Below, in pieces: positions 2,788 to 27,946 of a stretch of DNA of 64,000 nt. Numbering within the stretch: the stretch's first letter is position 1; every line of letters starts with the position of its first letter. A program made the position numbers and the translations under genes. This DNA comes from Minisyncoccota bacterium (GTDB taxonomy: Bacteria > Patescibacteriota > Minisyncoccia > Phycocordibacterales > GWA1-40-21), in NCBI GenBank assembly GCA_041663045.1, contig JBAZRH010000001.1:148403-212402 (forward strand). The letters are read 5' to 3'. The notes under the pieces are model-generated. The model saw only the letters and a program-made list of their open reading frames with translations. It did no database searches and was not told the DNA's origin.

Positions 2788-2807
2788 TGTTCGTTTTGAT
2801 TATTTAA

Positions 2808-3188
2808 TTATTTTTTATCAGCCGCTTTTCTTCCAGTTCCCATAGTCTTTCTTGTATTACCTCTAAGTGTTCTTGAATTGGTTTTTGTCCTTTGACCTCT
2901 TGCTGGGAGCTTTCTTGCGTGTCTTCCACCTCGGTAGCTTTTGATATCTTTGAGTCTCTTTATGTTTGCGCCGACTTCTCTCTTCAAGTCACCTTCAATT
3001 TTTAGCTTTTCAATAGATTTCTTTATCTTAGCTTCTTCATCTACTGTGATCTCTGCTGGTTTTTTTTCTGGATCAACGCCGGCTTCTTTCAAGATTATTT
3101 TGGCACGTGGTTGAGCGATGCCGTAAAGCACCGTTAGGCCTATTTTTAATCTTTTATTGTCTGGTATTGTTATTCCTACTATACGCAT
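2808..3188 (-). CDS. rpsM: 30S ribosomal protein S13
   Basis: 126 aa; MRIVGITIPDNKRLKIGLTVLYGI... S13 N-terminus and basic C-terminal tail. Confidence 0.9.
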   Translation of the reverse strand: MRIVGITIPDNKRLKIGLTVLYGIAQPRAKIILKEAGVDPEKKPAEITVDEEAKIKKSIEKLKIEGDLKREVGANIKRLKDIKSYRGGRHARKLPARGQRTKTNSRTLRGNTRKTMGTGRKAADKK

Positions 3189-5017: not shown

Positions 5018-6218
5018 ATAAAGGTTTTTGTTTATCCAATTTATCTAACAGAATGATATCCATCTTTATAAATGGTTGTTTCTTGAATATCTTTCCATTT
5101 ATAATGAAATTATTAAATGTCCCCTCAGAGATTTGTGTAATGCTTGGCTTTTTACCGTATATCCTCACGGGATGGTTGTAGTTTTCTTGCTTGATTCTAC
5201 CAACGAAAAGATTTAATAGATCGCTATTAGTTATGATGAAAATCTCAAATGGTACGTCTTTTTCAAGGCAAATCTTTGGTATTGATTCGTTGAATTTTTC
5301 CACCCACATACTCAGACCATCATCTATAATATTATTGACTTTTCTCTCGGATTCTTCGTCGCACTTACCATGAGATTTAATATTTATAAGTGATTGAATT
5401 ATTTCCTTTGTCAGACCCTCTTTCTTTGAGACAGATTCTATTATGGCGTCCTCTCCAAATGGAAAAGATGAAATACCATGTATTATGTCTTCTCTTACGA
5501 CGTAGATATCGGTAATCTTTTTACCAATATCTATATAAATAAAATTGTTTCTATTGGGAAAGAGATCTCTCATAAAAGTAAATGAAGAAAGGGTCTGAGA
5601 GTGAGAATGCTGATCAGTTTTTTGGCCAAATTTTTCTTCTATATATGAATTCAGTTTGTTTATAATTTCTTTTGGAATGAATGATGTAAAAAGATGTATC
5701 TCAATATCTTTTGTCTTTCTGTCGTAAATCTTATCCACCTTATAACCATTAAGTTTGGCTTGAATTATCTTTTCTTCCAGTAGTTCCCAACTACCGGACC
5801 CTTGCGTCTCTTCTATATTTTTCTGCCAATTATTCTCTTGGCTTACCAGAATACGTTTGAGAAAAGCATCATCTATTGTGAATTCCTTATCTTTTGTATA
5901 TTTTATATCTTTACTTTGAGAAACAACCCATGGTGAGCCAATAAAGAAGAAAAATTGTCCGATTTCTTCTTTAATACCCATTTTCTGAATAATACTATGC
6001 ATCTCGGTAATCCCTTTATCTAAAGTCTTTAGGAGGGATGCTGTGTATTTTTTATATAAGATGAGTTCTGATTCATCAATCTTGAAATCTTGGCAATATA
6101 GTATCTCTGGTTTTTTATTTTTGTAGATTCTTGTGACAGCGGAGGTGAGGGTGAATTCTCTTATATCGAAGACAACAGTCAAAGAAGATTTCTTTTTAAA
6201 GAAAGAAAAAAGATTCAT
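5010..6218 (-). CDS. actin-like ATPase, FtsA/PilM family (tentative)
   Basis: 402 aa; N-terminal LTVVFDIREFTLTSAV and internal IYIDIGKKITDIYVVREDIIHGISSFPFGEDAI resemble the phosphate-1/phosphate-2 and adenosine motifs of FtsA/PilM; homology only weakly supported by eye. Confidence 0.35.
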   Translation of the reverse strand: MNLFSFFKKKSSLTVVFDIREFTLTSAVTRIYKNKKPEILYCQDFKIDESELILYKKYTASLLKTLDKGITEMHSIIQKMGIKEEIGQFFFFIGSPWVVSQSKDIKYTKDKEFTIDDAFLKRILVSQENNWQKNIEETQGSGSWELLEEKIIQAKLNGYKVDKIYDRKTKDIEIHLFTSFIPKEIINKLNSYIEEKFGQKTDQHSHSQTLSSFTFMRDLFPNRNNFIYIDIGKKITDIYVVREDIIHGISSFPFGEDAIIESVSKKEGLTKEIIQSLINIKSHGKCDEESERKVNNIIDDGLSMWVEKFNESIPKICLEKDVPFEIFIITNSDLLNLFVGRIKQENYNHPVRIYGKKPSITQISEGTFNNFIINGKIFKKQPFIKMDIILLDKLDKQKPLYA

Positions 6219-10047: not shown

Positions 10048-11256
10048 CTAGCGGATTATCCCTCCTCCGAGACACACTTCCCCATCATAAATCACGGCAG
10101 ATTGCCCCGGCGTAATAGCTTTTTGGGGATTGGTAAAATACAATTCAAAACCTTCACCACTCTTGACTATCCTGCATTCCTCCAACGGCTGCCTGTATCT
10201 TATTCTTGCTGAATATATTTTTGATAAGTCTGGTGCCTTTTCGTAAATCCAATTTACATTTTTTATATGAACAATTTTTGACTCTTTTTCTTTTATCTTA
10301 TTCTTATCTTGGGAAACTAGTATCGTATTTTTTTCAATATTTTTATCTACTATATAATATGGCGAATCATTTGGAGTTTTCTCTGTAATTTTGAAACCAT
10401 GTCTTTGGCCGATAGTTAGGAAAAAGGCTCCATCATGTTCTCCGATTATCTTCCCCGATTCATTTAAGACTTCCCCACTCTTTTCTTTTATATAATTTTT
10501 CAAAAATTCTTTTATATCTATTTCGCCCAAGAAACACACACCCTGACTATCTTTTTTGTCTGAAGTTGAAAGCCCTAGCCTTTTCGCAATTTCTCTTACT
10601 TCCGGCTTTTCAATATCTCCAACAGGAAAAAGTGTCTTGGAAAGCTGTTTTTGCGTAAGTGTCCAAAGAAAATACGACTGATCTTTATTCTTATCATTCC
10701 CTGCGAGTAGTAATGTCCTATCAAAGGATTCATCTTTGGAGACTTCGCAGGCCGAGTGGGCAGGGTGTCTGCTTTCTGAAGCAGACGAGCGAGGCCGAGA
10801 CTTGAGGGTGGCTTCCCGCTGGGGAGCCAACCCGTGCTCCAAGGATGAGTCCTTTGGTAGGACATATTTAGTTTTTGCATAATGCCCTGTCGCCACAAAA
10901 TCCGTCCCTTGCTCCATAGCCCAATCAAAGAAAGCACCAAATTTTACATATTTATTGCACATTACATCCGGGTTTGGCGTCCTACCGGTTTTGTATTCAG
11001 CTATCATATAGTCGGCCACATCTCTTTTATATTCTTTTTCAAGATCAAGCGTGACAAAAGGAATATCAAGTTTTGCACAAACTCTCATGGCATCAAGTCT
11101 ATCTTCTCGCCAAGTACATTCTACAAAATCCGGATGCCATGTCTTTATAAAGACTCCCGTGACATCATATCCTGCTTTTTTGAGTAGCCCGGCAGAGACA
11201 GAAGAATCTACACCTCCAGATATTCCCACATATACTTTTTTAATATCTCTTTTCAC
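10048..11256 (-). CDS. mnmA: tRNA-specific 2-thiouridylase MnmA (with ~40-aa GC-rich insertion)
   Basis: 402 aa; PP-loop SGGVDSS, ...TGHYA...DQSYFLW...GVCFLGE motifs of MnmA; extra segment between GHYA and DKNKDQSYFL. Confidence 0.85.
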   Translation of the reverse strand: MKRDIKKVYVGISGGVDSSVSAGLLKKAGYDVTGVFIKTWHPDFVECTWREDRLDAMRVCAKLDIPFVTLDLEKEYKRDVADYMIAEYKTGRTPNPDVMCNKYVKFGAFFDWAMEQGTDFVATGHYAKTKYVLPKDSSLEHGLAPQREATLKSRPRSSASESRHPAHSACEVSKDESFDRTLLLAGNDKNKDQSYFLWTLTQKQLSKTLFPVGDIEKPEVREIAKRLGLSTSDKKDSQGVCFLGEIDIKEFLKNYIKEKSGEVLNESGKIIGEHDGAFFLTIGQRHGFKITEKTPNDSPYYIVDKNIEKNTILVSQDKNKIKEKESKIVHIKNVNWIYEKAPDLSKIYSARIRYRQPLEECRIVKSGEGFELYFTNPQKAITPGQSAVIYDGEVCLGGGIIR

Positions 11257-12002
11257 TATGTAAGTTTTATCACAACAGCTGTTCTTTCCGTTCCGTAATC
11301 ATTCTGATTTTGTTTGCTTAATATATCATCTATTCTCTCAAATTCACTTTGCATTTCGCCCATATTACTCTTTTTAAAGATATTTATGAAAGCTTCATTA
11401 TTAAAATGCTTTTCATAACCATCAGTAAACAGTATCAATAAGTCATCCTTTTTATATTCCATTTCGTATACTTGAACAAATTCAGTTAAATCATCGAGCA
11501 AACCCATGTAATTATATTTTTTATTCGGTTCATTTATTTGTCGCCAACTATGAAATTCTGGTGTCTTAAAAACGATTTCTTTATTTCTAATTAAGGCGAA
11601 TCCCGAGTCTATGAAGCGCCCACCGATTATCGTATTTCTTTTTTTAACAACCACAGCAGCAGTAGTACCGAATTCATGTTTGACAGAGTTCCCTCTATAA
11701 TATTTCTTGATATTGTCTAGGGCAAAATTAAAAGTCGAAATTATATCTGTACTAGAAATATTTGGGTAGGCTTTTTCGAGATATTTAATTGATTTATCAC
11801 AAAATATATTAGCTACAATTCTAGGTGGTGTCGGAGCTGTTTTGTCTTCGTAATCTGGTTTACCATCTTTGGTCATGGTTATTCCATCTGCGATAGAATA
11901 GATAGGAAATTTATTACTCAATAAATAAGCATCCTCTGCTCTCCAACATAGTTCGTCAGATATATGAGTGACACAAAAATAATTATTATTCTGGCTTGTC
12001 AT
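11256..12002 (-). CDS. PP2C-family (PPM) Ser/Thr protein phosphatase
   Basis: 248 aa; GTTAAVVVKK, IDSGFALIRN, ILFTDGY metal-binding Asp motifs typical of SpoIIE/PP2C-like phosphatases; 4-nt overlap with ychF and 1-nt with mnmA. Confidence 0.6.
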   Translation of the reverse strand: MTSQNNNYFCVTHISDELCWRAEDAYLLSNKFPIYSIADGITMTKDGKPDYEDKTAPTPPRIVANIFCDKSIKYLEKAYPNISSTDIISTFNFALDNIKKYYRGNSVKHEFGTTAAVVVKKRNTIIGGRFIDSGFALIRNKEIVFKTPEFHSWRQINEPNKKYNYMGLLDDLTEFVQVYEMEYKKDDLLILFTDGYEKHFNNEAFINIFKKSNMGEMQSEFERIDDILSKQNQNDYGTERTAVVIKLT

Positions 12003-13165
12003 ATCTTAAACTCTATGACATCCCCATCTTTTACAATATATTCCTTCCCTTCCGTGCGGATAAGACCTTTTTCACGAGCACTTCCGTGTGAGCCAGCATT
12101 TAGTAAATCTTGCCAGAAAATCACTTCTGCACGGACAAATTTATCTTTGAAATCTTGGTGAATCGCTGTACCGGCAAGGGGTGCCGTCCAGCCCTTTTTG
12201 ATAGTCCAAGCGCGAGTTTCGTCTTCTCCTGTTGTAAAATATGTCAGCAAACCGAGCAAATCATAGCCAGCTTTTATAAGACTATCTATACCATCGTCTT
12301 TTACACCAAGTCCTTCTCTCAATTCTTTTTTATCAGCACCTTCTAGATCTTTGAGTTCTTGTTCAATACCTGCATCTACTATTACATATTTTGAATTTGT
12401 CTCTCTAAAAAACCTCATTAATGCCGTCCAGCGAGGGTCTTCAATCTCACTTGCCCCGAGATCAATTCCTATTGATTTTTCGGGGTCGAGATTTTTCCCC
12501 CCAGCTTTTTTATTCAAAATATACAAAATCGGCTTCATTGTGAGAAGACAAAGTTTTTTGACTTCTACAATTTCCTTTTCACTTGCCCCGTCAAATTGAT
12601 TTTTTATTTGACTGGGGTCAAAGGCTGTACTTGCCAACCTTCCTGCTTCCAAAACAACTTTCAATTTCTCCAATGCACCATTTTCTATTACCGCTTCTTT
12701 ATTTCCCCTTTTTATATCACTTCCGATACTACCGAGCCTTTTCGTGACTGTTTGAAGGTCTGCGAGAATAAGCTCAAGATTTATCGTCTCAATATCCGAA
12801 AGTGGTTCTATTTTATTTGCAACATGGATAATATTGTCATCTTCGAAAATACGCACGACTTCAGCGATAGCATCCGTCTCGCGAATGTTTGTAAGAAATT
12901 TATTGCCAAGCCCTTCACCCGCCGAAGCGCCTTTTACAAGCCCTGCAATATCTACAAACTCAACTGCAGCAGGAATTGTCTTTGCTGATTTTGAGAAAGT
13001 AGAGAGCTTGCCGAGCCTTTCATCCGGCACAGCAACAACACCGACAGATGGATCTATCGTACAAAAAGGATAATTTTCACACGCCACCGCCTTTTTTGTC
13101 AGCGCATTGAAAAGTGTACTTTTCCCGACATTTGGCAAACCTACTATTCCTATTGATAATGACAT
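11999..13165 (-). CDS. ychF: ribosome-binding ATPase YchF (Obg-family GTPase fold + TGS domain)
   Basis: 388 aa; G1 GLPNVGKST, ENYPFCTIDP, C-terminal TGS-like domain. Confidence 0.85.
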   Translation of the reverse strand: MSLSIGIVGLPNVGKSTLFNALTKKAVACENYPFCTIDPSVGVVAVPDERLGKLSTFSKSAKTIPAAVEFVDIAGLVKGASAGEGLGNKFLTNIRETDAIAEVVRIFEDDNIIHVANKIEPLSDIETINLELILADLQTVTKRLGSIGSDIKRGNKEAVIENGALEKLKVVLEAGRLASTAFDPSQIKNQFDGASEKEIVEVKKLCLLTMKPILYILNKKAGGKNLDPEKSIGIDLGASEIEDPRWTALMRFFRETNSKYVIVDAGIEQELKDLEGADKKELREGLGVKDDGIDSLIKAGYDLLGLLTYFTTGEDETRAWTIKKGWTAPLAGTAIHQDFKDKFVRAEVIFWQDLLNAGSHGSAREKGLIRTEGKEYIVKDGDVIEFKI

Positions 13166-15547: not shown

Positions 15548-17113
15548 TTAATCTTTTATTATCCTTACGATTCCCTTATCTGCATCCACTTCCACCAAAT
15601 CCCCGTCTTTTAGCACCTTTGTGGCAATCTTTGTGCCTATTATACAAGGAATACCTAGCTCTCTTGAAACAATCGCGGCGTGGCAACTAATACCTCCCTC
15701 ATCCGTGATTATAGCGCCAGCAATTTTCATTGCAGGAACATAGTTTGGCATAGTCATACTCGTCACAAGTATTTCCCCAGCTTCTAATTTACCTATCTCA
15801 TTTGCAGAATGTAATACTTTCACAATACCTTTAACAAGTCCTTTGCATGCAATATTTCCCTTAAATGTATCGACTCTTTCTGTCTTTTTTTCAATTATCT
15901 CTTTTATTTTTTCACCGATTGCTATATCTAATTCGTATATTGTGTCTTTAGTATATATGACAGCATACCCGCCACTTCTTTCAAGGATCTTGTTTAGATT
16001 GATCTTTTCTCCAAGCAAGAAATCTGTGATTTCCCAGAAATTGAATAGGCAGATTTTCTTATGATTATCTAGTCCAGCCCTTTTTCCTATTTCATAAAAT
16101 AGATTTTGAACTTTATAGCACACCTCTTCTAGTTTCTCTACTCTTAGTAAACGAATGTGCGCCAAATCAGATGCCTGATGTGCATAAGTAATAACAACTT
16201 TATTTAATCCAGCCTCTTTTATTATTTGTTTTTTTGCTTTAATAAGTCTTTTCTTTGCTTCTTCAATCTCATTTAGTTTTTTCTGTGGATTTTCTCCGAG
16301 TACCTTTTTTAGGTTATTAATAAAATCAGCAAAGCTCTCATAATTAAATCTAAGTTCGGCGTCTGGAATCCAGGCATATTTTTCATAAACATTTTTGATT
16401 ATCTTTATCTGATTGTCTTTAACACCGCTTAAATTTTCATTTAGTGATTGTACATCTACAAAAGTCGATATTTTTATTGCAAGTTTTATCAAAGATTCCT
16501 CTTTTTCTTGAATAGTTGAAATAGTTTCTGAAGAAGTTAAAAGACGTAAGCTTTCCTGTAGCTCTTCATAATTATTGATTGGATTATATACTTTTGATAG
16601 TTCCTCAGTAATTATTCTTATTAGTCCATCTTCTGCTAAAAGCGGTGGCCATAGGTAGACCAATACATTAAATGAGAAATTAAGATATTTTTCATAATAT
16701 TTAAGTAATTTCTTGTCACACATAACAGAAAAATCTATTTTACTTGTTTTATCTGCCCATGTATCAAATAATTTACATTCTTTATATAACCCTGAAAATA
16801 GTTTATCTAAATACCGATAATCTTCTCTGCACTTCTTTTCAAATAGTACTTTGATTTTATCGGCGTTTTCTTCCTGGGAGTATACGTCGTAGTTTAGAGT
16901 CATTATCTTATCCATTTTATTTTTCAGACCAAAATCTTCCCTATCTGAAACACATCCAACACGGATGAGAGAGTCAAAAAGAGGAGAGTTTAACCTCTTT
17001 AAAACTTTGAACCACTTTTCAGAAGCCAGAGTACCAATTTCTTGTCCAGAGATCGTATTAGTTAAGGTTTTATAATCACCTTCTGATATTTTTATCTTTC
17101 TCGTATTTTTCAT
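15548..17113 (-). CDS. PEP-utilising-enzyme swivel domain protein, paralog C
   Basis: 521 aa; C-terminal [53 protein letters not shown]; 4-nt overlap with next gene. Confidence 0.85.
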   Translation of the reverse strand: MKNTRKIKISEGDYKTLTNTISGQEIGTLASEKWFKVLKRLNSPLFDSLIRVGCVSDREDFGLKNKMDKIMTLNYDVYSQEENADKIKVLFEKKCREDYRYLDKLFSGLYKECKLFDTWADKTSKIDFSVMCDKKLLKYYEKYLNFSFNVLVYLWPPLLAEDGLIRIITEELSKVYNPINNYEELQESLRLLTSSETISTIQEKEESLIKLAIKISTFVDVQSLNENLSGVKDNQIKIIKNVYEKYAWIPDAELRFNYESFADFINNLKKVLGENPQKKLNEIEEAKKRLIKAKKQIIKEAGLNKVVITYAHQASDLAHIRLLRVEKLEEVCYKVQNLFYEIGKRAGLDNHKKICLFNFWEITDFLLGEKINLNKILERSGGYAVIYTKDTIYELDIAIGEKIKEIIEKKTERVDTFKGNIACKGLVKGIVKVLHSANEIGKLEAGEILVTSMTMPNYVPAMKIAGAIITDEGGISCHAAIVSRELGIPCIIGTKIATKVLKDGDLVEVDADKGIVRIIKD

Positions 17114-20100
17114 TTTTTCTTATTTAATAATCTTACCACCCCCTTATCTGCATCCACTTCCACTAAATCTCCATCTTTAAGCACCTGCATAGAGTGTAAA
17201 CAACCGACAATACAAGGGATTTTTAATTCTCTGCTTATTATAGCCGCGTGAGATGTTATACCGCCTTCGTCAGCAATGATGGCAGCCGCTTTTCTCGCTA
17301 TTGCCATCATATTTGGCTGGGTCATACTTGTCACGAGAATTTCACCTTCTTTAAAGTCCTTTATACTTTTTTGTAGCATATCCAAATCTCCAGCTATAAC
17401 CTTCCTGACTTTTCCCGTCGCCTTTCCCAACATAGCAATTTGACCCTTTATTGTATTATCAATATTGATAATTTTCTTAATTTTTTCTTTAAAAAGATTA
17501 TTTGCTTCATCTGCTCCAACAACTCTAAGTTTATTATCACTTATTATAATTGCATAGGATTCTTTTCTGTCTACGATTATTGATTTTATATTTCCACGAT
17601 GTGTTCCATTTAACAATTCAATTGTCTCTGGTGGGGTAACAAAATCTAGCATATCAGATAGAGAGATATTAATTCTCTTTGATACCTCATTTAATAAATG
17701 CCTAGATAAATAATACGATCCTGCCCAATATGATTTTATATTCATCCTCTCGATTGATTGGTATTGTAAAAAGTCGGATAAATATTTTACTTCGTCACTT
17801 TCTGATCCAATTTTTCTGTAAATATTCTCCTGTCCTCTTCTGAGCTTCTCCTTATCTTCTTTTAATTTAGAATATTCTAGTCTATACGTATTTTTTTCAG
17901 ATTTTTTTCTATTCTCAAGAAACTTGAGAGTCCTTTTATCGTCGTATTGGCCGAAGACAAGCCAAGGATACTTTGATAGATGTTTTAGTAAAATCGAGTC
18001 ATCGTGTTTTTTTGATAAAATACTTAGCCAATCTAAATATTCTCTTTGTATATCATCAAGAGAAAGCGGAGTTGATAATATACCAAAAACTCTCGGCCAA
18101 TCATTATTAAAATATTTTCTAATAATCTCTTCTAATCTCTGCTCGGCTTTATAAGTAAATTCTGTCCTAGTGCTTCCAAAATATGCTATCGAATCTTTAG
18201 CGTGATCAATAAAAGAATTATAATCTTTAATTATTTGCCCATTTGTATATCTCGAAAAATCTACCGATTCGATTTTTCTCACCCAATTCCACCATTTCTT
18301 TGCTGCTACCCTATACTTAGATTTGTATTTATTGAAATATTTCTCGTCTAGGTATTTTTCTCCAATTTCTTTGAATTTATCTAGCTGTTTTTTAGGCATA
18401 TAAGTTGTGATCACCGATCCATCAAAATAACAGAATATTTCACCCTCTCCATATATATCCCCGTGAGTTATCAAGGCCTCTGAAGTAGTCCATGATGCTG
18501 GCATTATAGGAGTCGTACTCCACATAAAGACCCATTCATCGTTATTTTTTTCTGATATTCCAACCTCTTTTTTAAGTATCTTTATTACTCCCTTATCCGC
18601 ATCGACTTCCACCAGATCTCCATCTTTGAAAACTTGCGTGGCGATTTTGGTACCGACAATACATGGGATTTTTAATTCCCTGGAAATAATTGCCGCGTGG
18701 CAAGTTAAACCCCCTTCATCTGTAACAATAGCTGCGGCATTTTTTAAATAAGGGACAATTTGAGGGTTGGTCATACCAGAAACTAATATTGTACCGGGAG
18801 GAATATCGGCTCCATTCATAAGACTAAGATGTATTTTGACTGGACCTATCGCTTTTCCATGAAAAGCGATATTTCCTTTTACTTCAGCAACGTTTTGGGG
18901 TTCCAAGATTTTTTTCCAGGACAAATATTCGTTACCAGTTAAAAGATCGTTGCTTACCTTTCTGTATGGTAACAATGCCAAACCATTCATCCTCTCATTA
19001 AGCTCGTCCTTGTTTGGCACTCTTTGTCCATACAAGATCTCTTCTATTTCACAACTTCTAAGCGAGAAAGCTTGATTTAACGTAATGTGATGTTTATCAG
19101 CTAATCCCTGCATAAAATCAGTGAGGATCTCAAATAACGGACCAAGAGAGTTGTGTATTTTGAATTTCAATTCACCGAGTTTTATTAATCTGTTCAAAAT
19201 AGATTTTTGTTGTTTATTGAATTTTAATTTCGTAGCATAAGTTGAATCGTGTAATGCTTTTATTAAATTACTTTCTGTTTTAGCTGCTTTTATTATAATG
19301 TTTTCCAACGCTACCAGAACAGGTTGTTCACAGTATAAATATAGATTGCCTATTTTATCAAATAAATTTTCTATTATTTTCCATCGAGATATTTTATCTT
19401 TATCTGAAACTTTATCTAATTTGGTCTGAAGAGACTCTGGCTTTAACTCTTCGGCCAATTTTTTTAACTCTTTTATTTTTTGATTAGCAAATTTGTCATT
19501 TAAGAGTTTTTCTCCAAGATCAAATGCTTGTCTTTGGCCTTCTTTACTCAGATATCCAGCGATATGATCGTCTTTCTGTAAGACAACATAATCAATTTGG
19601 CCATAATTTTTTGGACGAAAAGCTATATCTGTGAAAATAAAAGGAAAATCTGTTTGACGAAAATGAAGTATATAAGAGTCTCTTTCTTCACTGTTTTTAT
19701 CTTTCAAAATCTTAATCACGCCTTTGTCTGCATCCACCTCGATTTCATCACCATCTTTGATAATTTGAGTGGCAATTTTTGTATCTATAATACATGGCTT
19801 ATGAATTTCTCTCGAGACTATGGCGGCATGACATAATAATCCACCTATATCTGTGATTATGGCAGAAGCCTGTTGCATCAAGATAACAAAATCTGGCGTT
19901 GTCATTGTGGACACTAGAATATCTCCAGCTTTCATTTTATGAAATTCATCTCTATTTATAACAACTCTAGCAATTCCTCGGACTTTTCCAGGATATGCTA
20001 CTACGCCTTTTGTTTCCTTCGCGTCTTTATCGGCATGAGGCAACATCTTGTCTTTTAAGTATTCAATATCTTCTTTATCCTCAATAACAATAGAATTTTC

Positions 20101-20766
20101 TTCCTTGTTGGCAAATAGAAACCAGTTTAAATCTCTCCTCCTTATTCCTCGTTTTTTTAGTTCATCTTTTTCAATTTCTCCTTTTAGTCCGGAAAGTATT
20201 TCAGTTGGAGAAAGCATTGTAAATTGACGATATTCTAGATTCAACTCTTTCGCTACAGCATGAAATAGCGGATATGCTTTGGCTGAAAGCATTGAAAAAT
20301 ATTCCGTAGAAACTTGTTTTACATAACCACAAGCGTGCATACACTCTGCACAAAATTCTAGTTTTTTAGAAACTTTCGGTAAAACCTTTTTTGTATGTAC
20401 CCCAGCATCTTTCGAATGAATTATTTGCTCATAAAGTCTGTCAACGGTTAATAATTCACCCACGAAGTTCAAGACTTCAATCCACTCATATTTTTCTGCA
20501 TGTTCCTCAAGCTTCTTTAATAGTGTTTTATTTTTCTTAACTTCTTTAAGGGTTTTGTTTCCGATTAACTTTTTAAGTTTCAAAACTTCTTGTTGTTGGA
20601 TTGTCAGTGGCGAAATAACCTGAGGTATTAAATCAGGTACAAGATCGGCTGGAAACTTTTCTTTGACGACTATATCCGCTAAAACTTCTTCAGATGCTTC
20701 AACAAGAAAAGTCGCACCCAGAAGCCATATAAAATTTAGCTTTCTAATTTCACCGAAAAGTTCCAA
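17110..20766 (-). CDS. triple-module PEP-utilising swivel domain protein (three N-domain + swivel units in one ORF), paralog D
   Basis: 1218 aa from the TTG/first-Met call. Swivel domains at approx nt 19712-19990 ([25 protein letters not shown]), 18585-18850 ([25 protein letters not shown]) and 17113-17400 ([25 protein letters not shown]). The reading frame stays open upstream to nt 21129 with no ATG. Confidence 0.8.
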   Translation of the reverse strand: MELFGEIRKLNFIWLLGATFLVEASEEVLADIVVKEKFPADLVPDLIPQVISPLTIQQQEVLKLKKLIGNKTLKEVKKNKTLLKKLEEHAEKYEWIEVLNFVGELLTVDRLYEQIIHSKDAGVHTKKVLPKVSKKLEFCAECMHACGYVKQVSTEYFSMLSAKAYPLFHAVAKELNLEYRQFTMLSPTEILSGLKGEIEKDELKKRGIRRRDLNWFLFANKEENSIVIEDKEDIEYLKDKMLPHADKDAKETKGVVAYPGKVRGIARVVINRDEFHKMKAGDILVSTMTTPDFVILMQQASAIITDIGGLLCHAAIVSREIHKPCIIDTKIATQIIKDGDEIEVDADKGVIKILKDKNSEERDSYILHFRQTDFPFIFTDIAFRPKNYGQIDYVVLQKDDHIAGYLSKEGQRQAFDLGEKLLNDKFANQKIKELKKLAEELKPESLQTKLDKVSDKDKISRWKIIENLFDKIGNLYLYCEQPVLVALENIIIKAAKTESNLIKALHDSTYATKLKFNKQQKSILNRLIKLGELKFKIHNSLGPLFEILTDFMQGLADKHHITLNQAFSLRSCEIEEILYGQRVPNKDELNERMNGLALLPYRKVSNDLLTGNEYLSWKKILEPQNVAEVKGNIAFHGKAIGPVKIHLSLMNGADIPPGTILVSGMTNPQIVPYLKNAAAIVTDEGGLTCHAAIISRELKIPCIVGTKIATQVFKDGDLVEVDADKGVIKILKKEVGISEKNNDEWVFMWSTTPIMPASWTTSEALITHGDIYGEGEIFCYFDGSVITTYMPKKQLDKFKEIGEKYLDEKYFNKYKSKYRVAAKKWWNWVRKIESVDFSRYTNGQIIKDYNSFIDHAKDSIAYFGSTRTEFTYKAEQRLEEIIRKYFNNDWPRVFGILSTPLSLDDIQREYLDWLSILSKKHDDSILLKHLSKYPWLVFGQYDDKRTLKFLENRKKSEKNTYRLEYSKLKEDKEKLRRGQENIYRKIGSESDEVKYLSDFLQYQSIERMNIKSYWAGSYYLSRHLLNEVSKRINISLSDMLDFVTPPETIELLNGTHRGNIKSIIVDRKESYAIIISDNKLRVVGADEANNLFKEKIKKIINIDNTIKGQIAMLGKATGKVRKVIAGDLDMLQKSIKDFKEGEILVTSMTQPNMMAIARKAAAIIADEGGITSHAAIISRELKIPCIVGCLHSMQVLKDGDLVEVDADKGVVRLLNKKK

Positions 20767-21110: not shown

Positions 21111-22106
21111 TTAGTTTTTTTTTACTTCTTCAGCTTTTGCCTCTGCTCTTATTGAATCTTTATTTGTCAGCGTAGTGATGGGCCTGCTTTGTACTATATA
21201 AAATTTTCCTTTTTCAAAAGCCCATTCTATATCGCAAGGGAAACCATAATGATTCTCGATTTTCATTATTAAATCTGCGAATTCAAAGATTTGTTTTTCA
21301 GTGAGTACTTGAGATGATGCTTTTGGTTCAGAAATATCGATCCACTCATTGCCACCAGTTGAAACTCTATATAAACCTCTTGCTTGTGTTGAAATATTTG
21401 TATCGATAATTCTTCTCGGATCCTTCTCGACAACATATGAATCTGGTGTTATCTGTCCAGACACTATGGCTTCCCCAAGACCAAATCCAGCTTCTATAAT
21501 CATCTGATTTCTGTCTTCGGTAACAGGATGTACAGAGAAAGCTATACCGGAAACTTCAGAATTTACCATTTTTTGTATGACGACAGCGACTGAAATCTTT
21601 GTCTCGTGTAAATCTTTTTCAAATCTATAAAAAATAGCTCTCGGAGTGAAAAGTGATGCCCAGCAATGCTGAACTTTTTCTAAAACATTTTTCTCTTTAG
21701 TATTTAAATATGAATCAAGTTGTCCTGCCCAAGCGTTTTCTGCGCCGTCTTCTGCGGTGGCGGACGAACGGACGGCTACGAATTCGGTATCTAACTTTTT
21801 AAACTGCGACATTATCTCTTTCGCAATATTTTCTGGCATATCGGCGTTTTTGATAAGACTTTGAATTTTCTCTGAAGCGACTTCAACACTATTTATATCT
21901 TTGTGATTTACTGTATGTAAAACAGTATCTATTTCTTCAGAAAGATTTGCACCTTTTACGAATTCATCGAAAGTAGTTGAGAGGACGACAAAACCCGGCG
22001 GCACTGGTATTCCTGCCTGTGTCATTTCTCCAAGTGAGGCGCCTTTTCCACCGGCAATATCGGCATTGCTTTTATTCAATTCTCTGAAATGCAACGTTAA
22101 TTTCAT
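21111..22106 (-). CDS. PEP synthase / pyruvate-phosphate dikinase N-terminal ATP-grasp (nucleotide-binding) domain protein, stand-alone
   Basis: 331 aa; IAGGKGASLGEMTQAGIPVPPGFVV ... VAVRSSATAEDGAENAWAGQLDSY ... CDIEWAFEKGKFYIVQSRPIT covers Pfam PPDK_N end to end; no swivel or TIM-barrel domain; stop codon sits inside an A9 run. Confidence 0.85.
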   Translation of the reverse strand: MKLTLHFRELNKSNADIAGGKGASLGEMTQAGIPVPPGFVVLSTTFDEFVKGANLSEEIDTVLHTVNHKDINSVEVASEKIQSLIKNADMPENIAKEIMSQFKKLDTEFVAVRSSATAEDGAENAWAGQLDSYLNTKEKNVLEKVQHCWASLFTPRAIFYRFEKDLHETKISVAVVIQKMVNSEVSGIAFSVHPVTEDRNQMIIEAGFGLGEAIVSGQITPDSYVVEKDPRRIIDTNISTQARGLYRVSTGGNEWIDISEPKASSQVLTEKQIFEFADLIMKIENHYGFPCDIEWAFEKGKFYIVQSRPITTLTNKDSIRAEAKAEEVKKN

Positions 22107-22165
22107 ACTGGAAACTATAACAAATTATATATCACTTGGGAAGCTTATTTTTAGTGATAAAAGTG
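22107..22165 (-). promoter_or_regulatory. candidate extended -10 promoter for the PPDK_N gene
   Basis: minus-strand TGATATATAAT ~22 nt upstream of the ATG at 22106; weak -35. Confidence 0.3.
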
Positions 22166-22191
22166 AATAAAACATAGCTCAATTTTGCCTA

Positions 22192-22220
22192 TTGACTTTT
22201 ATATCTAAGTATGCTATCCT
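22192..22220 (+). promoter_or_regulatory. candidate sigma70-type promoter of the GC-rich island gene 1
   Basis: TTGACT-17 nt-TATCCT followed by AAGGAGG Shine-Dalgarno 7 nt before ATG at 22288. Confidence 0.3.
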
Positions 22221-22287
22221 TTCAGGCAGGATACAGGATTGGTACCTGTATGTGTAGAAAACGAAAACAACAGAAGGAGGCGTCAAA

Positions 22288-22923
22288 ATGACGCACAGCA
22301 AACGTAAACTGGTGGCGGTGTTTCAGAGACATGGTGCCACAAACAAAGCGCAAGCGGGTCAGCATGATCTTACCCGCACGCTAAGCGAGGAAGGACGGAA
22401 GCAGGCGGCGTTGATTGGGTCAAAGATCGGTTACAAAATTGACCTTATCATCTCGTCTGCTGCTGGGCGCGCGGTGGAAACAGCATGTATCACGGCACGG
22501 GCGGCGGGTCAGCTCCCGGATGGGGTTCAGCACTTCGCCGAAGATGTGCTTTATCCGCACGAGCATACCTATCCGATTTTGGACGCAGCGTTCAAGAAAA
22601 TCGGGTATGCGCCGCTCGCGAGCTATCTCCTCGACCCAAATGTGGTAAAGGAGACCGCAGCTTACGCGATACGTGCAATGGGCAGGATATGGGAAATCAT
22701 CAACGAGGCCGACTCCGGTCTCGAAGATGAAAAGCAGCCGTTTGTTGTGTTAATAACCTCACACGCCGTCTGCGCCAATATCCTGGCACGGAATATGCAA
22801 CTCGGTACCGACGCGACGCTTGAGGACCTCGTCCTTGTCGGCAGTACGTCAATGGATGCCGGGTCAGCGATCGTGATTGAGCTCGAGGATGACAAGTCCT
22901 CGGCCAAATATATTACGCCGTGA
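22288..22923 (+). CDS. histidine-phosphatase-superfamily protein, SixA-like (phosphohistidine phosphatase-like)
   Basis: 211 aa; RHG motif (VFQRHGAT), LISSAAGRAVETA and LITSHAV second-His motif in the order/spacing of E. coli SixA; strong AAGGAGG RBS; GC-rich codon usage unlike neighbours. Confidence 0.6.
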   Translation: MTHSKRKLVAVFQRHGATNKAQAGQHDLTRTLSEEGRKQAALIGSKIGYKIDLIISSAAGRAVETACITARAAGQLPDGVQHFAEDVLYPHEHTYPILDAAFKKIGYAPLASYLLDPNVVKETAAYAIRAMGRIWEIINEADSGLEDEKQPFVVLITSHAVCANILARNMQLGTDATLEDLVLVGSTSMDAGSAIVIELEDDKSSAKYITP

Positions 22924-22945
22924 TCTGAATATACGGCAAAAAAGA

Positions 22946-23004
22946 CCTCGTTTTGACGAGGCATGGCGGGGGGAACACAATGTTGTGAACCCCGCCTTTT
23001 TATT
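22946..23004 (+). terminator. rho-independent terminator (two hairpins + T-run)
   Basis: CCTCG-ttttga-CGAGG then GGCGGGGGGAACACAA-tg-TTGTGAACCCCGCC followed by TTTTTATT. Confidence 0.6.
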
Positions 23005-23056
23005 ACCCAAATATTCATATTTATAGGCATATTCTTATATAATCTCTATTATGTGC

Positions 23057-23084
23057 TTGACAAGTACTATAAAAGGTGTATAAT
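23057..23084 (+). promoter_or_regulatory. consensus sigma70 promoter
   Basis: TTGACA - 16 nt - TATAAT, perfect consensus hexamers, ~58 nt upstream of GTG start at 23143. Confidence 0.6.
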
Positions 23085-23142
23085 GGGATGGGTAGATGTT
23101 AATTTGAAATAAAACGGTAAAAACCGTGGAAAGAGGTGAAAA

Positions 23143-23616
23143 GTGAGTGCAAATACAAAGCGGATTCTATGTGTGTGCTACGGCAACAGCGACAGGAGTC
23201 CGGCGATGGCGGCGGTACTCAACATGTATCTCAAGAACGCCGGGTACAAGACTTATTGTGAAAGTGCCGGCGTCGGGGAAAATGCTGCGAAAGGCGGTTC
23301 GGCTGCAAAGTTTGCGATTGACGCCTGTAGTCAGATTGGTCTCAATATCTCGGGTCACGACAAGCGTCGGACGACGACGCTCGATCTTAACAGCTACGAT
23401 CTTGTCGTCTGTGCAGACTGTTTGGTCGCCGAGATGCTCATCAAGCAAGGTTGCGACATCGGCAAGATATACAATGCCGAGATTCCCAATCCATGGCCGG
23501 TGAAGTTCAAAGCACAGTACACCGAGACATTCCAGCGAATCCTCGCCGCAATGTATCTCGTCGTGGACCGATACTTCGTCAACATGAATGAAGTGGACGG
23601 TCCGCAAGGTGGTTAA
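23143..23616 (+). CDS. low-molecular-weight protein phosphatase family protein (LMW-PTP / ArsC / YwlE-like)
   Basis: 157 aa; N-terminal P-loop ILCVCYGNSDRSPAMAA = C-x5-R-(S) signature of LMW-PTP/ArsC family; GC-rich. Confidence 0.6.
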   Translation: MSANTKRILCVCYGNSDRSPAMAAVLNMYLKNAGYKTYCESAGVGENAAKGGSAAKFAIDACSQIGLNISGHDKRRTTTLDLNSYDLVVCADCLVAEMLIKQGCDIGKIYNAEIPNPWPVKFKAQYTETFQRILAAMYLVVDRYFVNMNEVDGPQGG

Positions 23617-23637
23617 GCTAAAGAGCTGAAACCGCCG

Positions 23638-23673
23638 GAGCCCAACTGTAAAAAGTTGGGCTCTATTTTTTTT
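23638..23673 (+). terminator. rho-independent terminator
   Basis: GAGCCCAACT-gtaaaa-AGTTGGGCTC followed by TATTTTTTTTAT. Confidence 0.65.
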
Positions 23674-25114
23674 ATATTATTCTTATAATTCCCTTTTCGG
23701 CGTCTAGCTCTACTTTGTCGCCATCTTTCAATACTTTAGTTGCTATTTTTGTACCGATAATGCAAGGAATATTTAATTCACGAGAGATTATAGCGGCATG
23801 GCAAGTGATTCCGCCTTCATCTGTGATTATTCCCCCAGCACGTTTAATAAGAGGTGCAAAATCAGGAGTCGTCATACCTGTGACAATAATATCTCCATTA
23901 TCAAAATTATTCACATGAGAACTTTTTAGTACACGTACCTTCCCTACCACTTTTCCTTTATTCGCAACTTGTCCATGAATTTCCTTTATATCTTTATGAT
24001 CGGTTTTCCACGGCACATTTAACTTTATTAGAAGTTTTCTAGCATTGGAACCTTCATGATATGTACTTCCTTTATCAGAATTTGTTTCTATCACAATATC
24101 CATTCTGTTTTTTATATTTATGCTTATATCCTTTCCAGATATTGCGAGCCTTGCCAGTCTCGGGTCAAGATACCTTGCTTCATCTAAAGTCAGATTTAAT
24201 TTTGAAGCGGCCCATTTAAGGATTATATCATTGAAATAATAACAGATTTGGGCACTAAGCATCTTTCTGTCGTCCTGCATCAAAGACAGGTTTCTCATTA
24301 TCTTGAATAAATAGTTTGTCTCTTCAGAGAATTTATATTTCTCCTGATACTCTTCTTGTAGCAAAACAATATCAATGTTTTGTGAAGTTTTATTATATTC
24401 TTTTGATACCAAAGTTTCTTCAACTCTTTTTGATACAGTTTCTTCTGTCCAGACTATAGGTCCCACATATTCATATGGAAACCAGAAGTATTTATCAGAG
24501 AATATCTTTATGGCTTCTTTAGTATTGATATTTTCTAATCCATTGGACTTGGCTATTTTTAGCAGATTTTTAAATTCCTCTTCTTCTATCTGGCTATATG
24601 ATTTTTCTTGATGACTGACCATTATAGGTAATATTTTATGTGCCTCATCTATGCCGTATTCTTTAAGATGATTTAGTAATTGTCTTTCGGCCTCGGCTCC
24701 ACCAAAAAGCCACAGAATCATATTTTTACGCATCAATTCTTGATAAGTGATTATGAATTTATCAAAGAAATCTGGGAAGCTTTCAATATCTCTGTTTACA
24801 CAAGTATCGGCGAATTCTTTACATAAATCCACCGCTTTTTGCCCGGCTTCTATGCCCTCTTTTCTTATCTTCTCAAGATTATCTTTATTTTCCCAAAGTA
24901 TTTTAAAAGCCCCTTCATTTCTGTCTTTTGAGAATTCTTTTTCAACTACTGCTGTGAAGTGACCGTTTTCCCATATCTCTAGAGATATCCCTCTTTTAAT
25001 TTTTAAATATTCGCCAAGAGGCCAAGAAAAATATGCTGACAAAGGAAAAAGAGCTGGTATATACCTAGTACGCACCATTATCCAGTCTTCTGGTTTATAT
25101 TTCTTTTCAGGCAT
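23672..25114 (-). CDS. PEP-utilising-enzyme swivel domain protein, paralog F
   Basis: 480 aa; C-terminal [51 protein letters not shown]. Confidence 0.85.
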   Translation of the reverse strand: MPEKKYKPEDWIMVRTRYIPALFPLSAYFSWPLGEYLKIKRGISLEIWENGHFTAVVEKEFSKDRNEGAFKILWENKDNLEKIRKEGIEAGQKAVDLCKEFADTCVNRDIESFPDFFDKFIITYQELMRKNMILWLFGGAEAERQLLNHLKEYGIDEAHKILPIMVSHQEKSYSQIEEEEFKNLLKIAKSNGLENINTKEAIKIFSDKYFWFPYEYVGPIVWTEETVSKRVEETLVSKEYNKTSQNIDIVLLQEEYQEKYKFSEETNYLFKIMRNLSLMQDDRKMLSAQICYYFNDIILKWAASKLNLTLDEARYLDPRLARLAISGKDISINIKNRMDIVIETNSDKGSTYHEGSNARKLLIKLNVPWKTDHKDIKEIHGQVANKGKVVGKVRVLKSSHVNNFDNGDIIVTGMTTPDFAPLIKRAGGIITDEGGITCHAAIISRELNIPCIIGTKIATKVLKDGDKVELDAEKGIIRII

Positions 25115-25128
25115 ATCTTTTGAGTCTC

Positions 25129-26001
25129 CTATCCTTGAGCTATTTGTTCCACAACAGAGAGATCAATTTCTTCATCAATACTAAAATCATTTAGAGGTGT
25201 ATCGCTCTTTTTGCTATATTTCAAGTGTAATGTAGGTTTTTCTGATCCAGCTTTTGTAATAACATCCAATTCAAATCCTTCCGTTACATCAAAACCGGTA
25301 TTTTTTAATGCTTTTATAAGTTTATTTCTCTCCTCGATGCCTTTTGTCATTTCTACAACTTTCATCAAGAAACTTTCTGCAATACCTTGATGGGTAGCAA
25401 AGAATCTTTTCATTTCTGGTTCATATTTATCACTTTTTTCTTCGACGAGCTTATTCCATCTTGGAGCAATATTAAAATATTTTAAGACAATTTCCGCTAC
25501 GCCTTTTGCTTGACGAGAATATGTTAGCTGTCCTTCAAAACCTTGTTCTTTTGCCAGTGTGTCGCTTTGATCTGCCAAAAATTCCATGAATTTTCCTTTA
25601 GTGAAAGCGTCTATCGCTTGTTTTTCATACTCTGTCTTTCCAATAGAAAAGTCGAGACGTGAATCTACATTGAATTTTGAGCCGTAAGCCAAATCTTTAT
25701 CAATCTTAGTTTTTAGTTCTTCCAATGTCTCGTTACCGGTTATTTCGTCTTCTCCTCCAGCCATCACAAAACCTGCTGTTTCCCAGGTGCGTTCTTTTGT
25801 AGAGACGAAAGCCACAGATTGATCTATATCACTTCCCTTTTCAGCCTTGTTTTTAGCTTGCATACGGCCTCCTGGAGTAAGTCGGATTTGTTCATCTGTC
25901 TTTGTTTTATCTTTCTCTTTTTCGCCATGGCGGAAGAAGTTTAGAATTATTTCTGATTGATATTCTCTTATTGCCTCCGGACTTTTGATTTGTGATTCCA
26001 T
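25129..26001 (-). CDS. histidine-phosphatase-superfamily (PGAM/SixA-like) protein, native composition
   Basis: 290 aa; FFRHGEKE (RHG catalytic motif) near N-terminus and ATHQGIAE second His motif near C-terminus. Confidence 0.5.
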   Translation of the reverse strand: MESQIKSPEAIREYQSEIILNFFRHGEKEKDKTKTDEQIRLTPGGRMQAKNKAEKGSDIDQSVAFVSTKERTWETAGFVMAGGEDEITGNETLEELKTKIDKDLAYGSKFNVDSRLDFSIGKTEYEKQAIDAFTKGKFMEFLADQSDTLAKEQGFEGQLTYSRQAKGVAEIVLKYFNIAPRWNKLVEEKSDKYEPEMKRFFATHQGIAESFLMKVVEMTKGIEERNKLIKALKNTGFDVTEGFELDVITKAGSEKPTLHLKYSKKSDTPLNDFSIDEEIDLSVVEQIAQG

Positions 26002-26866: not shown

Positions 26867-27946
26867 TTATTGCTTTGTTTGTCCTTTTAATAATTGGTCA
26901 ATATCAAGACAGGTTTTTTCTATGAGAGAATGCATAATAGCCATCTTTTGTTCATTATAAGAAAAATCTTTCCAATCACCGCTTTTTGGTCTATCCATAT
27001 AAGCCCTTTCATTGCATTCAATCTGAAGCGCATTTACGCCCATATTTCTACCTGCTCCACCCCAGAATTTGACATTGTGAACACCTTTCATATAATAATT
27101 TCTGATAAATAATTCACCCTTAATATCCTCTGAAATTAATTTCTTTTCATCTTCCGGTAAAGATTCATAGTTTGTTTTCAGGGCTTTTTCAAACGCTTCT
27201 ATAATATCGTCATCGCAACCTTCTCCATCTCTCGTGCCCAAAATAAACATTGGCATCATCTCTGGATCAGGAATACCATAGTGATCATACCAAGTCTTTG
27301 TATCAGCTGTAACAGGAAAAGAATGTCCATCTACAAGAAGAATCCTCTCCTCTTTTCTATTCTGCCTTTTATCTGCCATAGCTCCGACAGCACCCATAAC
27401 AGTATTGTAATAAGGCAGATAATATCTCTCCGCCCAATTCTCTGCTTCTTCTGCGGTCGGTTGCATATCTTCTTTGTACATAGGGCCGAATTTTGCACCC
27501 TTTGTCCAAAGTATTGTGCCCGGAGCTTTCCCCTTCTCATACTTTTTATCCAAATCAAATTCTGGTGCTCTGTTTGGGTCGACGACAAACCTAGATATAC
27601 CAAACTTTACCCAAGGTATTGTCTTGCTTTTAAATATTTCGGGTGTTCCAAGATCTGTAAGCGCAAGAGTTTCTGTGCCTTCTTCTGTCAGCCTATCTTT
27701 TAAGCTTTCTGGAGCATACTCTCCGGCGTGTGGTAATCCAATAATAACATTTGGACAGCCGTCTCTTGCTATCGGGCTAGTATCACTTTCTACCGCTTCA
27801 TTACCAGTTATCTCTTCTTGCCTCATTTCTGGACGAGACGGTAAACCCAAAGCTTCAAGTGTATTGTAAACTTTTTCGAGTTTTTCTCTTCTTTCTGTTC
27901 GAGAGTCCGTATCTGCGAAAGGAAATTTTGGAGGATGTTCGGTCAT
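26867..27946 (-). CDS. N-formylglutamate amidohydrolase (FGase)-family zinc hydrolase-like protein
   Basis: 359 aa; GLPHAGEYAP, LLVDGHSFP, LQIECNERAYMD correspond to the three conserved FGase blocks. Confidence 0.45.
   Translation of the reverse strand: MTEHPPKFPFADTDSRTERREKLEKVYNTLEALGLPSRPEMRQEEITGNEAVESDTSPIARDGCPNVIIGLPHAGEYAPESLKDRLTEEGTETLALTDLGTPEIFKSKTIPWVKFGISRFVVDPNRAPEFDLDKKYEKGKAPGTILWTKGAKFGPMYKEDMQPTAEEAENWAERYYLPYYNTVMGAVGAMADKRQNRKEERILLVDGHSFPVTADTKTWYDHYGIPDPEMMPMFILGTRDGEGCDDDIIEAFEKALKTNYESLPEDEKKLISEDIKGELFIRNYYMKGVHNVKFWGGAGRNMGVNALQIECNERAYMDRPKSGDWKDFSYNEQKMAIMHSLIEKTCLDIDQLLKGQTKQ

Follow-up and report, generated by a model that had tools for sequence, protein, structure and literature searches.

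A recurrent GC-rich phosphatase-like gene pair in the split dikinase arrays of Patescibacteria

A 64,000-nucleotide stretch of a Candidatus Paceibacterota chromosome (Patescibacteria, or candidate phyla radiation, CPR; assembly GCA_041663045.1, contig JBAZRH010000001.1, positions 148,403 to 212,402 of the forward strand), here called the window, carries a small GC-rich island of two genes inside a long AT-rich array of split dikinase genes. Gene 1 (22288-22923, + strand) encodes a 211-residue protein of branch 1 of the histidine-phosphatase superfamily (HP), and gene 2 (23143-23616, + strand) encodes a 157-residue protein with the fold of the low-molecular-weight protein tyrosine phosphatases (LMW-PTPs), referred to below as PTP. 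The island is a recurrent, optional and compositionally distinct accessory cassette of Patescibacteria dikinase arrays, and not a recent foreign insert or an artefact. On balance, its two genes are likely to be dedicated accessory partners of the array, which remove or shuttle phosphoryl groups.

Both genes lie within an array read from the opposite (-) strand, between a stand-alone PPDK_N gene (21111-22106, -) and a convergent gene that encodes a swivel domain (23672-25114, -). GC content is 0.52-0.55 over positions 22200-23600 and 0.31-0.40 in the flanks, making this the sole kilobase of the window to exceed 0.45. In 600-nucleotide windows, GC averages 0.358 outside the island (standard deviation 0.036, maximum 0.460) and rises to as much as 0.552 inside. 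At third codon positions, GC (GC3) is 0.618 for gene 1 and 0.627 for gene 2 (overall GC 0.549 and 0.523), whereas the window's 21 array-type genes have a GC3 of 0.29 and its ribosomal-protein genes one of 0.25-0.37. Codon choice differs in the same way: the island genes use CGN, CCG, GCG, ACG, and CTC, while array and ribosomal-protein genes use AGA, CCA, GCA/GCT, and ACA. A preliminary description made from the letters of the stretch had singled out a GC-rich + strand gene pair that splits the array, and these figures bear it out. The GC-rich part consists only of the two coding sequences. The intergenic stretches of 181 and 219 nucleotides are host-like (GC 0.33 and 0.36), and both island junctions fall in host-like, AT-rich intergenic DNA.

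The same arrangement is found in other Patescibacteria. Members of the PTP family were sought in a protein database, in one genome per GTDB species, and in JGI metagenomes; loci with L numbers are contigs fetched from these sources. Including the present copy, 28 distinct LMW-PTP-like genes occur on Patescibacteria contigs (27 others), and the family comprises about 16 database clusters, 10 GTDB species, and 27 metagenome loci. A single-protein scan of the GTDB genomes returned nothing, while an alignment-based scan did find members. Every homologue with a taxon label is labelled as Patescibacteria; the hosts so named include Vogel-, Taylor-, Kaiser-, and Komeilibacteria, along with ‘Saccharibacteria’ and Paceibacterota. 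Independent assemblies with the same architecture come from groundwater, lakes, sediments, and other sources. The gene next to PTP is a convergent swivel or PPDK_N gene in 24 of the 28 loci, and in 23 of those 24 it lies 25-72 nucleotides away. A contig from Hainich groundwater (L001) has the same pair, His_Phos_1 followed by LMWPc, on the strand opposite to its array, and there too the pair is a GC island (0.54-0.57 against 0.32-0.42). Same-strand His_Phos_1 genes are present in the arrays of L001, L009, L010, L011, L017, and L021; those of L009, L010, L011, and L017 belong to other lineages and are GC-rich. Separately, L023 has a gene for a 174-residue protein on the PTP strand (7472-7996, +) that matches no Pfam family. 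Its GC3 is 0.70 where that of the locus is 0.30, and it may be another cassette of the same style.

The unusual composition of the PTP gene recurs with it. GC3 of PTP is above the pooled GC3 of its neighbours in all 24 testable loci (mean 0.64 versus 0.43, a difference of +0.21), and in 18 of 28 loci no gene has a higher GC3 than PTP. Pooled over the family, NNC codons and AAG are favoured. PTP GC3 rises with host GC3 with a slope of 0.52 (r 0.56). Four-fold degenerate sites are saturated for nearly all pairs of family members, with a median identity of 0.33; the only close pairs are L009/L022 and L040/L042. In addition, the invariant residues of the protein are encoded by differing synonymous codons across lineages. 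Because four-fold sites are saturated and synonymous codons differ, the GC3 excess does not stem from shared recent ancestry, and it resembles a state that is being maintained more than an import in decay.

Several causes of this excess have been considered. Translational selection for high expression is not sufficient, since the four-fold codons of the island (CCG, ACG, GCG, CGG, GTG) are opposite to those of the window's ribosomal-protein genes (CCA, ACA, GCA/GCT, AGA); in L005 and L007, too, housekeeping genes, those for ribosomal proteins among them, lack a high GC3. Head-on orientation alone was rejected, as other + strand genes in the window (57088-59156) have GC3 of 0.27-0.28. The remaining candidates, which would have to account for the Shine-Dalgarno sites of the cassette genes as well, are selection on mRNA stability or structure or on escape from AT-targeting factors, biased gene conversion tied to frequent exchange of a portable cassette, and repeated import from unsampled GC-richer Patescibacteria. 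As a separate observation, a tRNA cluster at 53577-54303 includes Val-CAC, Ala-CGC, and Pro-CGG, which read GTG, GCG, and CCG. These codons are seldom used in host genes and are among the favoured codons of the two island genes.

Judged by predicted signals, the two island genes are independent single-gene transcription units. Gene 1 is preceded by a weak promoter-like site (22192-22220, +; TTGACT-17-TATCCT, matching 9 of 12 positions) and by the Shine-Dalgarno sequence AAGGAGG (22274-22280, +), which lies 7 nucleotides before the ATG; no other gene of the window has an AGGAGG upstream. Its terminator (22946-23001, +) consists of a hairpin at 22946-22961, a GGCGGGG...CCCCGCC stem at 22965-22996, and UUUUU (-27.4 kcal/mol, z -2.46). 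Gene 2 has a perfect sigma-70 promoter (23057-23084, +; TTGACA-16-TATAAT), a leader of about 58 nucleotides, and a GTG start preceded by the Shine-Dalgarno-like AGAGGTGA (23132-23139, +). In the gene 2 terminator (23637-23673, +), a hairpin at 23637-23664 built on the stem GGAGCCCAACT/AGTTGGGCTCT precedes T8 (z -4.9). A T-run is missing on the - strand, so that the terminator is one-directional, and the stop codon of the convergent swivel gene lies directly against it. The preliminary description had credited each gene with an E. coli-style expression signal. The perfect promoter, the AAGGAGG of gene 1, and both terminators stand, while the ribosome-binding site of gene 2 is a weaker one than that of gene 1. 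The deposited NCBI protein for gene 2 has 147 residues; the family alignment backs the GTG at 23143, which gives 157, so that the deposited version probably leaves out about ten codons at the start.

A perfect promoter match is not rare by chance in this DNA: four matches of at least 11 of 12 positions occur in the window, against an expected 4.0 +/- 2.0. The significance of the gene 2 promoter derives instead from its conservation in orthologous loci. Of 27 loci, 23 have a PTP promoter that matches at least 10 of 12 positions and is equivalently placed, compared with 5% of shuffles, and in six the match is perfect; in most loci the -10 hexamer ends 49-81 nucleotides before the start codon. 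A strong Shine-Dalgarno 5-mer lies ahead of 23 of 28 PTP genes and of five of nine opposite-strand His_Phos_1 genes. The corresponding shares are 3% for 105 array genes and 4% for 139 other neighbouring genes, and pipeline gene calls agree. Terminator hairpins are followed by a T-run on the PTP strand in 22 of 28 loci; just one of the 28 has such a run on the array strand. The terminator stem AGCCCAAY...RTTGGGCT is found at the 3' end of PTP in this window (23639-23662) and in L004, L008, L016, L017, L028, and L044, and nowhere else in the window or in the 52 fetched loci. A second perfect TTGACA-16-TATAAT was also seen at 27069-27096 (+), antisense within an FGase-like gene (26867-27946). The 5' leader of gene 2 contains a small hairpin with an A-rich loop (ACGGTAAAAACCGT; 23114-23127, +) whose folding energy is not significant (z -1.2), and similar A-rich-loop hairpins lie about 15-25 nucleotides 5' of the Shine-Dalgarno sequence in other PTP leaders (L008, L010, L011).

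The protein encoded by gene 1 matches Pfam His_Phos_1 (PF00300) with an E-value of 2.7e-10 and 40.7 bits, against a gathering cut-off of 21.7. Its RHG motif is formed by R14, H15, and G16, and aligns with the RHG of the SixA-like structure 2rfl; S158-H159 is also present. The catalytic core (R14, H15, R61, H159) is invariant in an alignment of 19 sequences comprising gene 1 and its relatives. The structure model (predicted local distance difference test, pLDDT, 94) shows the alpha/beta fold of the superfamily, and Foldseek assigns it a probability of 1.00 to PGAM5, GpgP, TIGAR, SixA, and dPGM alike. The motifs reported in the preliminary description, RHG...SH in gene 1 and C-x5-R-S in gene 2, thus hold, as do both fold assignments. 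The label ‘SixA-like’ is right as to the superfamily and its RHG...R...H core, and too specific beyond them. Against the NCBIfam model for sixA (TIGR00249), gene 1 scores 23.8 bits where the equivalog cut-off is 74.5, and the match spans residues 14-74 only. The best PDB profile matches are putative SixA proteins (2rfl, 5.7e-17; 3f2i; 4hbz), over the N-terminal half alone. SixA of E. coli has about 160 residues, and has no room for the helical insert of about 45 residues that gene 1 carries at positions 96-142; as a structural match it is no better than PGAM5, GpgP, or TIGAR (template-modelling, TM, scores 0.5-0.7). Because of the sub-cut-off score and the helical insert, gene 1 is set apart from SixA, as a branch-1 histidine phosphatase, by its sequence, of a small separate lineage. 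That lineage is small indeed: only three relatives have E < 1e-30 among 1.84 billion representatives. The one on a contig long enough to show context lies in a swivel array. A high GC content is shared by relatives at 41-45% identity to gene 1, and the L021 copy, with GC3 of 0.72, converges on swivel genes with GC3 of 0.27-0.31.

Gene 2 encodes a protein that matches Pfam LMWPc (PF01451) above its gathering cut-off (E 6e-12). The P-loop is C12-YGNSD-R18-S19, and C12, G14, N15, R18, S19, and P20 are invariant in the family, together with S41 and H72. The network of Cys, Arg, Ser, Asn15, Ser41, and His72 characteristic of active LMW-PTPs is intact. Here the earlier assignment to an LMW-PTP-like family stands for the fold and the P-loop, and falls short at the general acid. 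An invariant N116 (EIPNPW) aligns with the general-acid Asp (EIPDPY, in the D-P-Y/F loop) of Wzb, bovine LMW-PTP, and YwlE; of these reference sequences, the first 95 residues of Wzb were checked against a separate alignment. Relative to LMW-PTPs, some 7-10 residues are missing from the variable loop that precedes the D-P-Y motif, and the P-loop has an Asp at the position where LMW-PTP, ArsC, and YwlE have Cys. Compared with Wzb, bovine LMW-PTP, MPtpA, and YwlE, gene 2 thus has Asn in place of the general-acid Asp and Asp in place of the second P-loop Cys. Its family also appears restricted to Patescibacteria arrays. A role as a thioredoxin-coupled arsenate reductase failed as a candidate: the family has no further invariant Cys corresponding to the redox pair Cys82 and Cys89 of pI258 ArsC, and NCBIfam ArsC scores are 14-15 bits against cut-offs of 158-215.

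The array into which the pair is set occupies 36 kb of the - strand (13172-49425) and includes a single PPDK_N gene, 19 genes that each encode between one and three PEP-utilizers (phosphoenolpyruvate-utilising) swivel domains, and a few others. The swivel domains sit behind variable N-terminal domains. PPDK_N (Pfam E 3e-99) is an ATP-grasp protein and the sole nucleotide-binding component of the array; its closest solved relatives are the ATP-grasp domains of PEP synthase and rifampin phosphotransferase, and the swivel domains are likewise closest to these two enzymes. Rifampin phosphotransferase comprises the same three modules as the array, namely ATP-grasp, substrate-binding, and His swivel (PMC4844700). 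A characterised two-component dikinase, HpeHI, is split into ATP-grasp and swivel partners (PMC12167813), and so has its ATP-grasp on a separate polypeptide, as does the array. The array differs from these two systems in that one ATP-grasp gene accompanies about 20 swivel genes with differing N-terminal domains, and the abstracts on the two systems describe no phosphatase partner (PMC4844700, PMC12167813). In the literature searched, no description of swivel arrays in Patescibacteria or CPR was found.

Since the domains are nearest to PEP synthase and rifampin phosphotransferase, and since a split dikinase is known in HpeHI, a phosphate-loading model can be proposed for the array. PPDK_N would load phosphate from ATP onto the swivel histidines, and the swivels would pass it to the many different substrates of the variable domains, which is the mode of action of rifampin phosphotransferase and HpeHI. 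The island proteins would then take phosphoryl groups back off, either from phospho-histidine swivel domains, as a reset, or from phosphorylated products. It is the conserved gene neighbourhood (convergent in 24 of 28 loci) that ties the pair to the phosphohistidine chemistry of the array, and this link, which the preliminary description had proposed, is backed also by the recurrence of same-strand His_Phos_1 genes. A precedent for such a job exists, as SixA erases phospho-histidine on the phosphocarrier and phosphotransfer proteins NPr (PMC7948535, PMC6282199) and Ndk (PMC12934123). The context of SixA is the phosphotransferase system (PTS) or a two-component system, while that of gene 1 is a split dikinase array.

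Regulation of the pair may also be linked to its orientation. As the gene 2 terminator is one-directional, transcription of the array could continue antisense through the phosphatase genes. With their own promoters and antisense read-through from the array, the two genes might be expressed independently of the kinases and perhaps in opposition to them, which is speculative. In the excludon-type loci of Listeria, long antisense transcripts span oppositely oriented genes of opposing function. The island shares with them opposite-strand genes of opposing functions (loading versus removal) and a terminator that acts in one direction, and an array-strand U-tract is absent from the PTP terminator in 27 of 28 loci; the antisense read-through is here predicted from the sequence. 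In a more far-reaching version, which we regard as improbable, the cassettes would use a separate expression code of promoter, leader, Shine-Dalgarno sequence, and selected GC codons as a kinase/phosphatase toggle, and the Asn-variant PTP would represent a new phospho-histidine-directed or phospho-cysteine-relay class. Such a code might act through the availability of the anti-Shine-Dalgarno sequence, through escape from AT-targeting RNases or silencers, or through antisense interference from the array.

A number of observations weigh against a dedicated phosphoryl-removing or phosphoryl-shuttling partnership with the array. We infer the substrate of the island proteins from gene neighbourhood alone. 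The partnership does not explain the cause of the GC3 excess. The convergent swivel neighbour of PTP is not one orthologous paralogue (72 of 221 best hits), and a specific orthologous swivel partner is not supported. The PTP family is rare and patchy relative to PPDK_N arrays, as stand-alone PPDK_N amounts to at least 5796 clusters at E < 1e-60 among 8000 candidates scored. No island lies beside PPDK_N in the visible part of the array in the four closest PPDK_N relatives examined (79-85% identity), on contigs that are short or rearranged; one of these contigs has an HD-domain gene in its array. Most arrays therefore probably work without the phosphatase pair. Whether related genomes carry the array without the island had been put forward earlier as a check on foreign origin, and the answer is mixed, with four close relatives that lack it beside PPDK_N and about 27 other Patescibacteria contigs that carry PTP. 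Given the rarity of the family and its absence beside PPDK_N on these four contigs, the island is best described as optional and patchy.

The active site of gene 2 provides a further objection. In LMW-PTPs, the Asp of the D-P-Y motif protonates the leaving group and then activates the water that hydrolyses the Cys-phosphate. Mutants of this residue (D129) are crippled in classical catalysis. The Asn of gene 2 would be expected to cripple classical LMW-PTP catalysis likewise, and the protein may not be a hydrolase. An Asn that is invariant points to an easy leaving group, such as phospho-histidine or an acyl phosphate, or to a relay or trap role.

Among the rival explanations, the one that survives best is that the island is a self-sufficient mobile cassette, which has spread horizontally among Patescibacteria arrays and owes its GC content to GC-richer donors or to GC-biased gene conversion as a companion of frequent recombination. 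We hold this to be possible, though tentatively, and it is compatible with a functional role in the array. The patchy distribution, rare in comparison with that of arrays, and the absence beside PPDK_N in the closest relatives are what would be expected of such an element. So are its self-contained expression signals, the conserved terminator stem that travels with the PTP gene, the pairing of differing His_Phos_1 lineages with one PTP family, and the moderate correlation between PTP and PPDK_N identities (Spearman 0.53, over pairs that are not independent). However, neither terminal repeats nor target duplications border the island, where direct and inverted repeats are short and at chance level, and no integrase, transposase, or recombinase was found among the window open reading frames scanned against Pfam, which were a subset. 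The nearest tRNA is 30 kb away. An IMG/VR scan of viral contigs revealed no PTP relatives, and the island has no DNA similarity to plasmid or phage collections. Near-identical copies in different hosts are lacking, and the two pairs named above are the only close ones. The AT-rich, host-like intergenic parts and the partial tracking of host GC3 by PTP also count against wandering. Furthermore, a gene that wanders among hosts whose GC3 averages 0.43 should need some additional force to settle at 0.64.

Other searches of the island gave negative results. An Rfam search of the island gave nothing above noise, and PADLOC defence models had no meaningful match to the two island genes or six neighbours. 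The 10-mer GCGGGTCAGC is present in three copies in all, every one inside gene 1; it was rejected as an uptake or Chi-like signal, as three of 100 shuffles reach the same count.

A second alternative concerns the biochemistry of gene 2. Rather than a hydrolase, the protein could be a phospho-cysteine carrier or trap, which takes phosphate from a phospho-histidine swivel onto Cys12 and either keeps it or hands it on in the manner of PTS enzyme IIB domains, or it could bind phosphorylated targets without turnover. This is unlikely in our estimate. The substitutions at N116 and in the P-loop would suit such a role, and the PEP-utilizers swivel domain is the very module that starts the PTS relay. 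Against this, the catalytic network is intact, no acceptor is evident, and hydrolysis may still be possible, because a phospho-histidine or acyl-phosphate leaving group may need no general acid. The phospho-cysteine carriers of the PTS, the enzyme IIB proteins, are far more distant from gene 2 than are LMW-PTPs; gene 2 keeps the phosphatase Arg-Ser, and no HPr, IIA, or IIC components were seen.

Recent acquisition from a GC-rich organism outside Patescibacteria, with GC content, codons, Shine-Dalgarno sites, and promoter as relics of the donor, is largely refuted, and we give it little credence. It would account for the large deviation in GC3 and at amino-acid-determining positions, for the absence of the island beside PPDK_N in the closest relatives, and for Shine-Dalgarno sites in a genome otherwise without them. 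The host genes of the window, ribosomal-protein genes included, have no Shine-Dalgarno sequence and are preceded by A/T-rich DNA (e.g. 20-3188, 5010-6218), and the anti-Shine-Dalgarno motif has been detected in only 48% of Parcubacteria (PMC9297842). Yet all relatives of gene 2 with a taxon label are labelled as Patescibacteria, nearly all in an array context, and the one close relative of gene 1 with visible context is in a swivel array. The same deviations are found family-wide despite synonymous saturation, and the intergenic DNA is host-like. The idea of a horizontal acquisition, raised in the preliminary description, is thus not upheld in the form of a recent one-off import; the GC3 excess recurs, flanking repeats do not exceed chance, and no integrase was seen among the reading frames scanned against Pfam.

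The same description had considered contamination, a chimeric assembly, or an engineered insertion, and the clean consensus signals and abrupt change in composition might suggest one of these. Any such artefact is now highly implausible: the same order, strand, composition, and signals occur in independent assemblies, the island has no DNA similarity to E. coli genomes any more than to plasmids or phages, the change in composition is confined to two coding sequences and does not form one block, and the gene 2 terminator abuts the swivel stop codon here as in orthologous loci. Lastly, GC-richness due to an overlapping antisense gene on the array strand can be rejected, for although the in-register antisense frame of gene 2 is open over 149 of 158 codons, and fully open in five of 15 loci, it has two to four stops in L004, L008, L014, L015, L016, and L018 and one mid-gene stop in L012, and an open antisense frame is the expected by-product of shunning A-ending Leu and Ser codons in a GC3-rich gene.

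The DNA between gene 1 and PPDK_N is a divergent control region. It contains an inverted repeat (22151-22208) with 19-nucleotide arms that are 84% complementary; as it extends over the gene 1 -35 hexamer, this repeat is a candidate operator. PPDK_N is preceded by a promoter-like site (22114-22142, -; TTCCCA-17-TATAGT with an upstream TG), identified by consensus match only, whose -10 hexamer ends 7 nucleotides before the ATG at 22106. This position suggests that the PPDK_N mRNA is leaderless, and that transcription of the array re-initiates right after the island. Several other host genes may share this property. Among 23 genes with an upstream gap of at least 40 nucleotides, eight have a -10-like hexamer ending 4-12 nucleotides before the start (3.5 +/- 1.7 in shuffles), which suggests leaderless mRNAs.

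On the other side of the island, the convergent swivel gene combines a 400-residue N-terminal domain of unknown family with a C-terminal PEP-utilizers mobile domain. Beyond it lies a second His_Phos_1 gene of the array, HP2 (25129-26001, -; 290 residues), which is host-like in composition (GC3 0.27) and has orthologues in the arrays of L004, L010, and L023. A 21st array-type gene, also encoding a swivel domain, lies outside the array span (57088-58527, +). Unusual members of the arrays include a 1218-residue protein with three swivel domains, a Fic-domain gene, an HD-domain gene, and a HATPase_c-swivel fusion (window 17110-20766 and 46435-49425; L001 4908-5960; L049 8511-9101; L052 6688-7953). 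In L005, L010, L015, L018, and L031, the arrays are AT-richer than adjacent housekeeping genes, a deviation opposite to that of the island.

The region is flanked by ordinary chromosomal genes, namely those for ribosomal proteins L13, L17, S4, S11, and S13, and for RpoA, AlaRS, MnmA, YchF, Ddl, and UvrC. Between MnmA and YchF, about 1.2 kb from the end of the array, a gene at 11256-12002 (-) has a weak, sub-cut-off match to PP2C_2 (E 3e-4), and could represent a third kind of phosphatase. In a Campbellbacteria genome, YchF directly follows PPDK_N (L052 10001-12099), while here four swivel genes lie between the two (YchF 11999-13165). This difference suggests that the array has expanded at a conserved chromosomal site.

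A large part of bacterial diversity belongs to Patescibacteria, whose accessory genes for the most part have no known role. If the conservative reading given here is correct, a suspected artefact is removed, and two ‘hypothetical’ phosphatases acquire a context-specific role. A phosphoryl-removing pair would give an experimental handle on the substrates of the array and on its reset. Nature has here an LMW-PTP-fold family whose general-acid position is invariably Asn, and which could stand for a new class of substrate or for a relay. Finally, GC-rich codons and Shine-Dalgarno sequences that are kept across lineages in which other genes have neither offer a test case for what maintains gene-specific composition and for translation start in bacteria that mostly do without Shine-Dalgarno sites.

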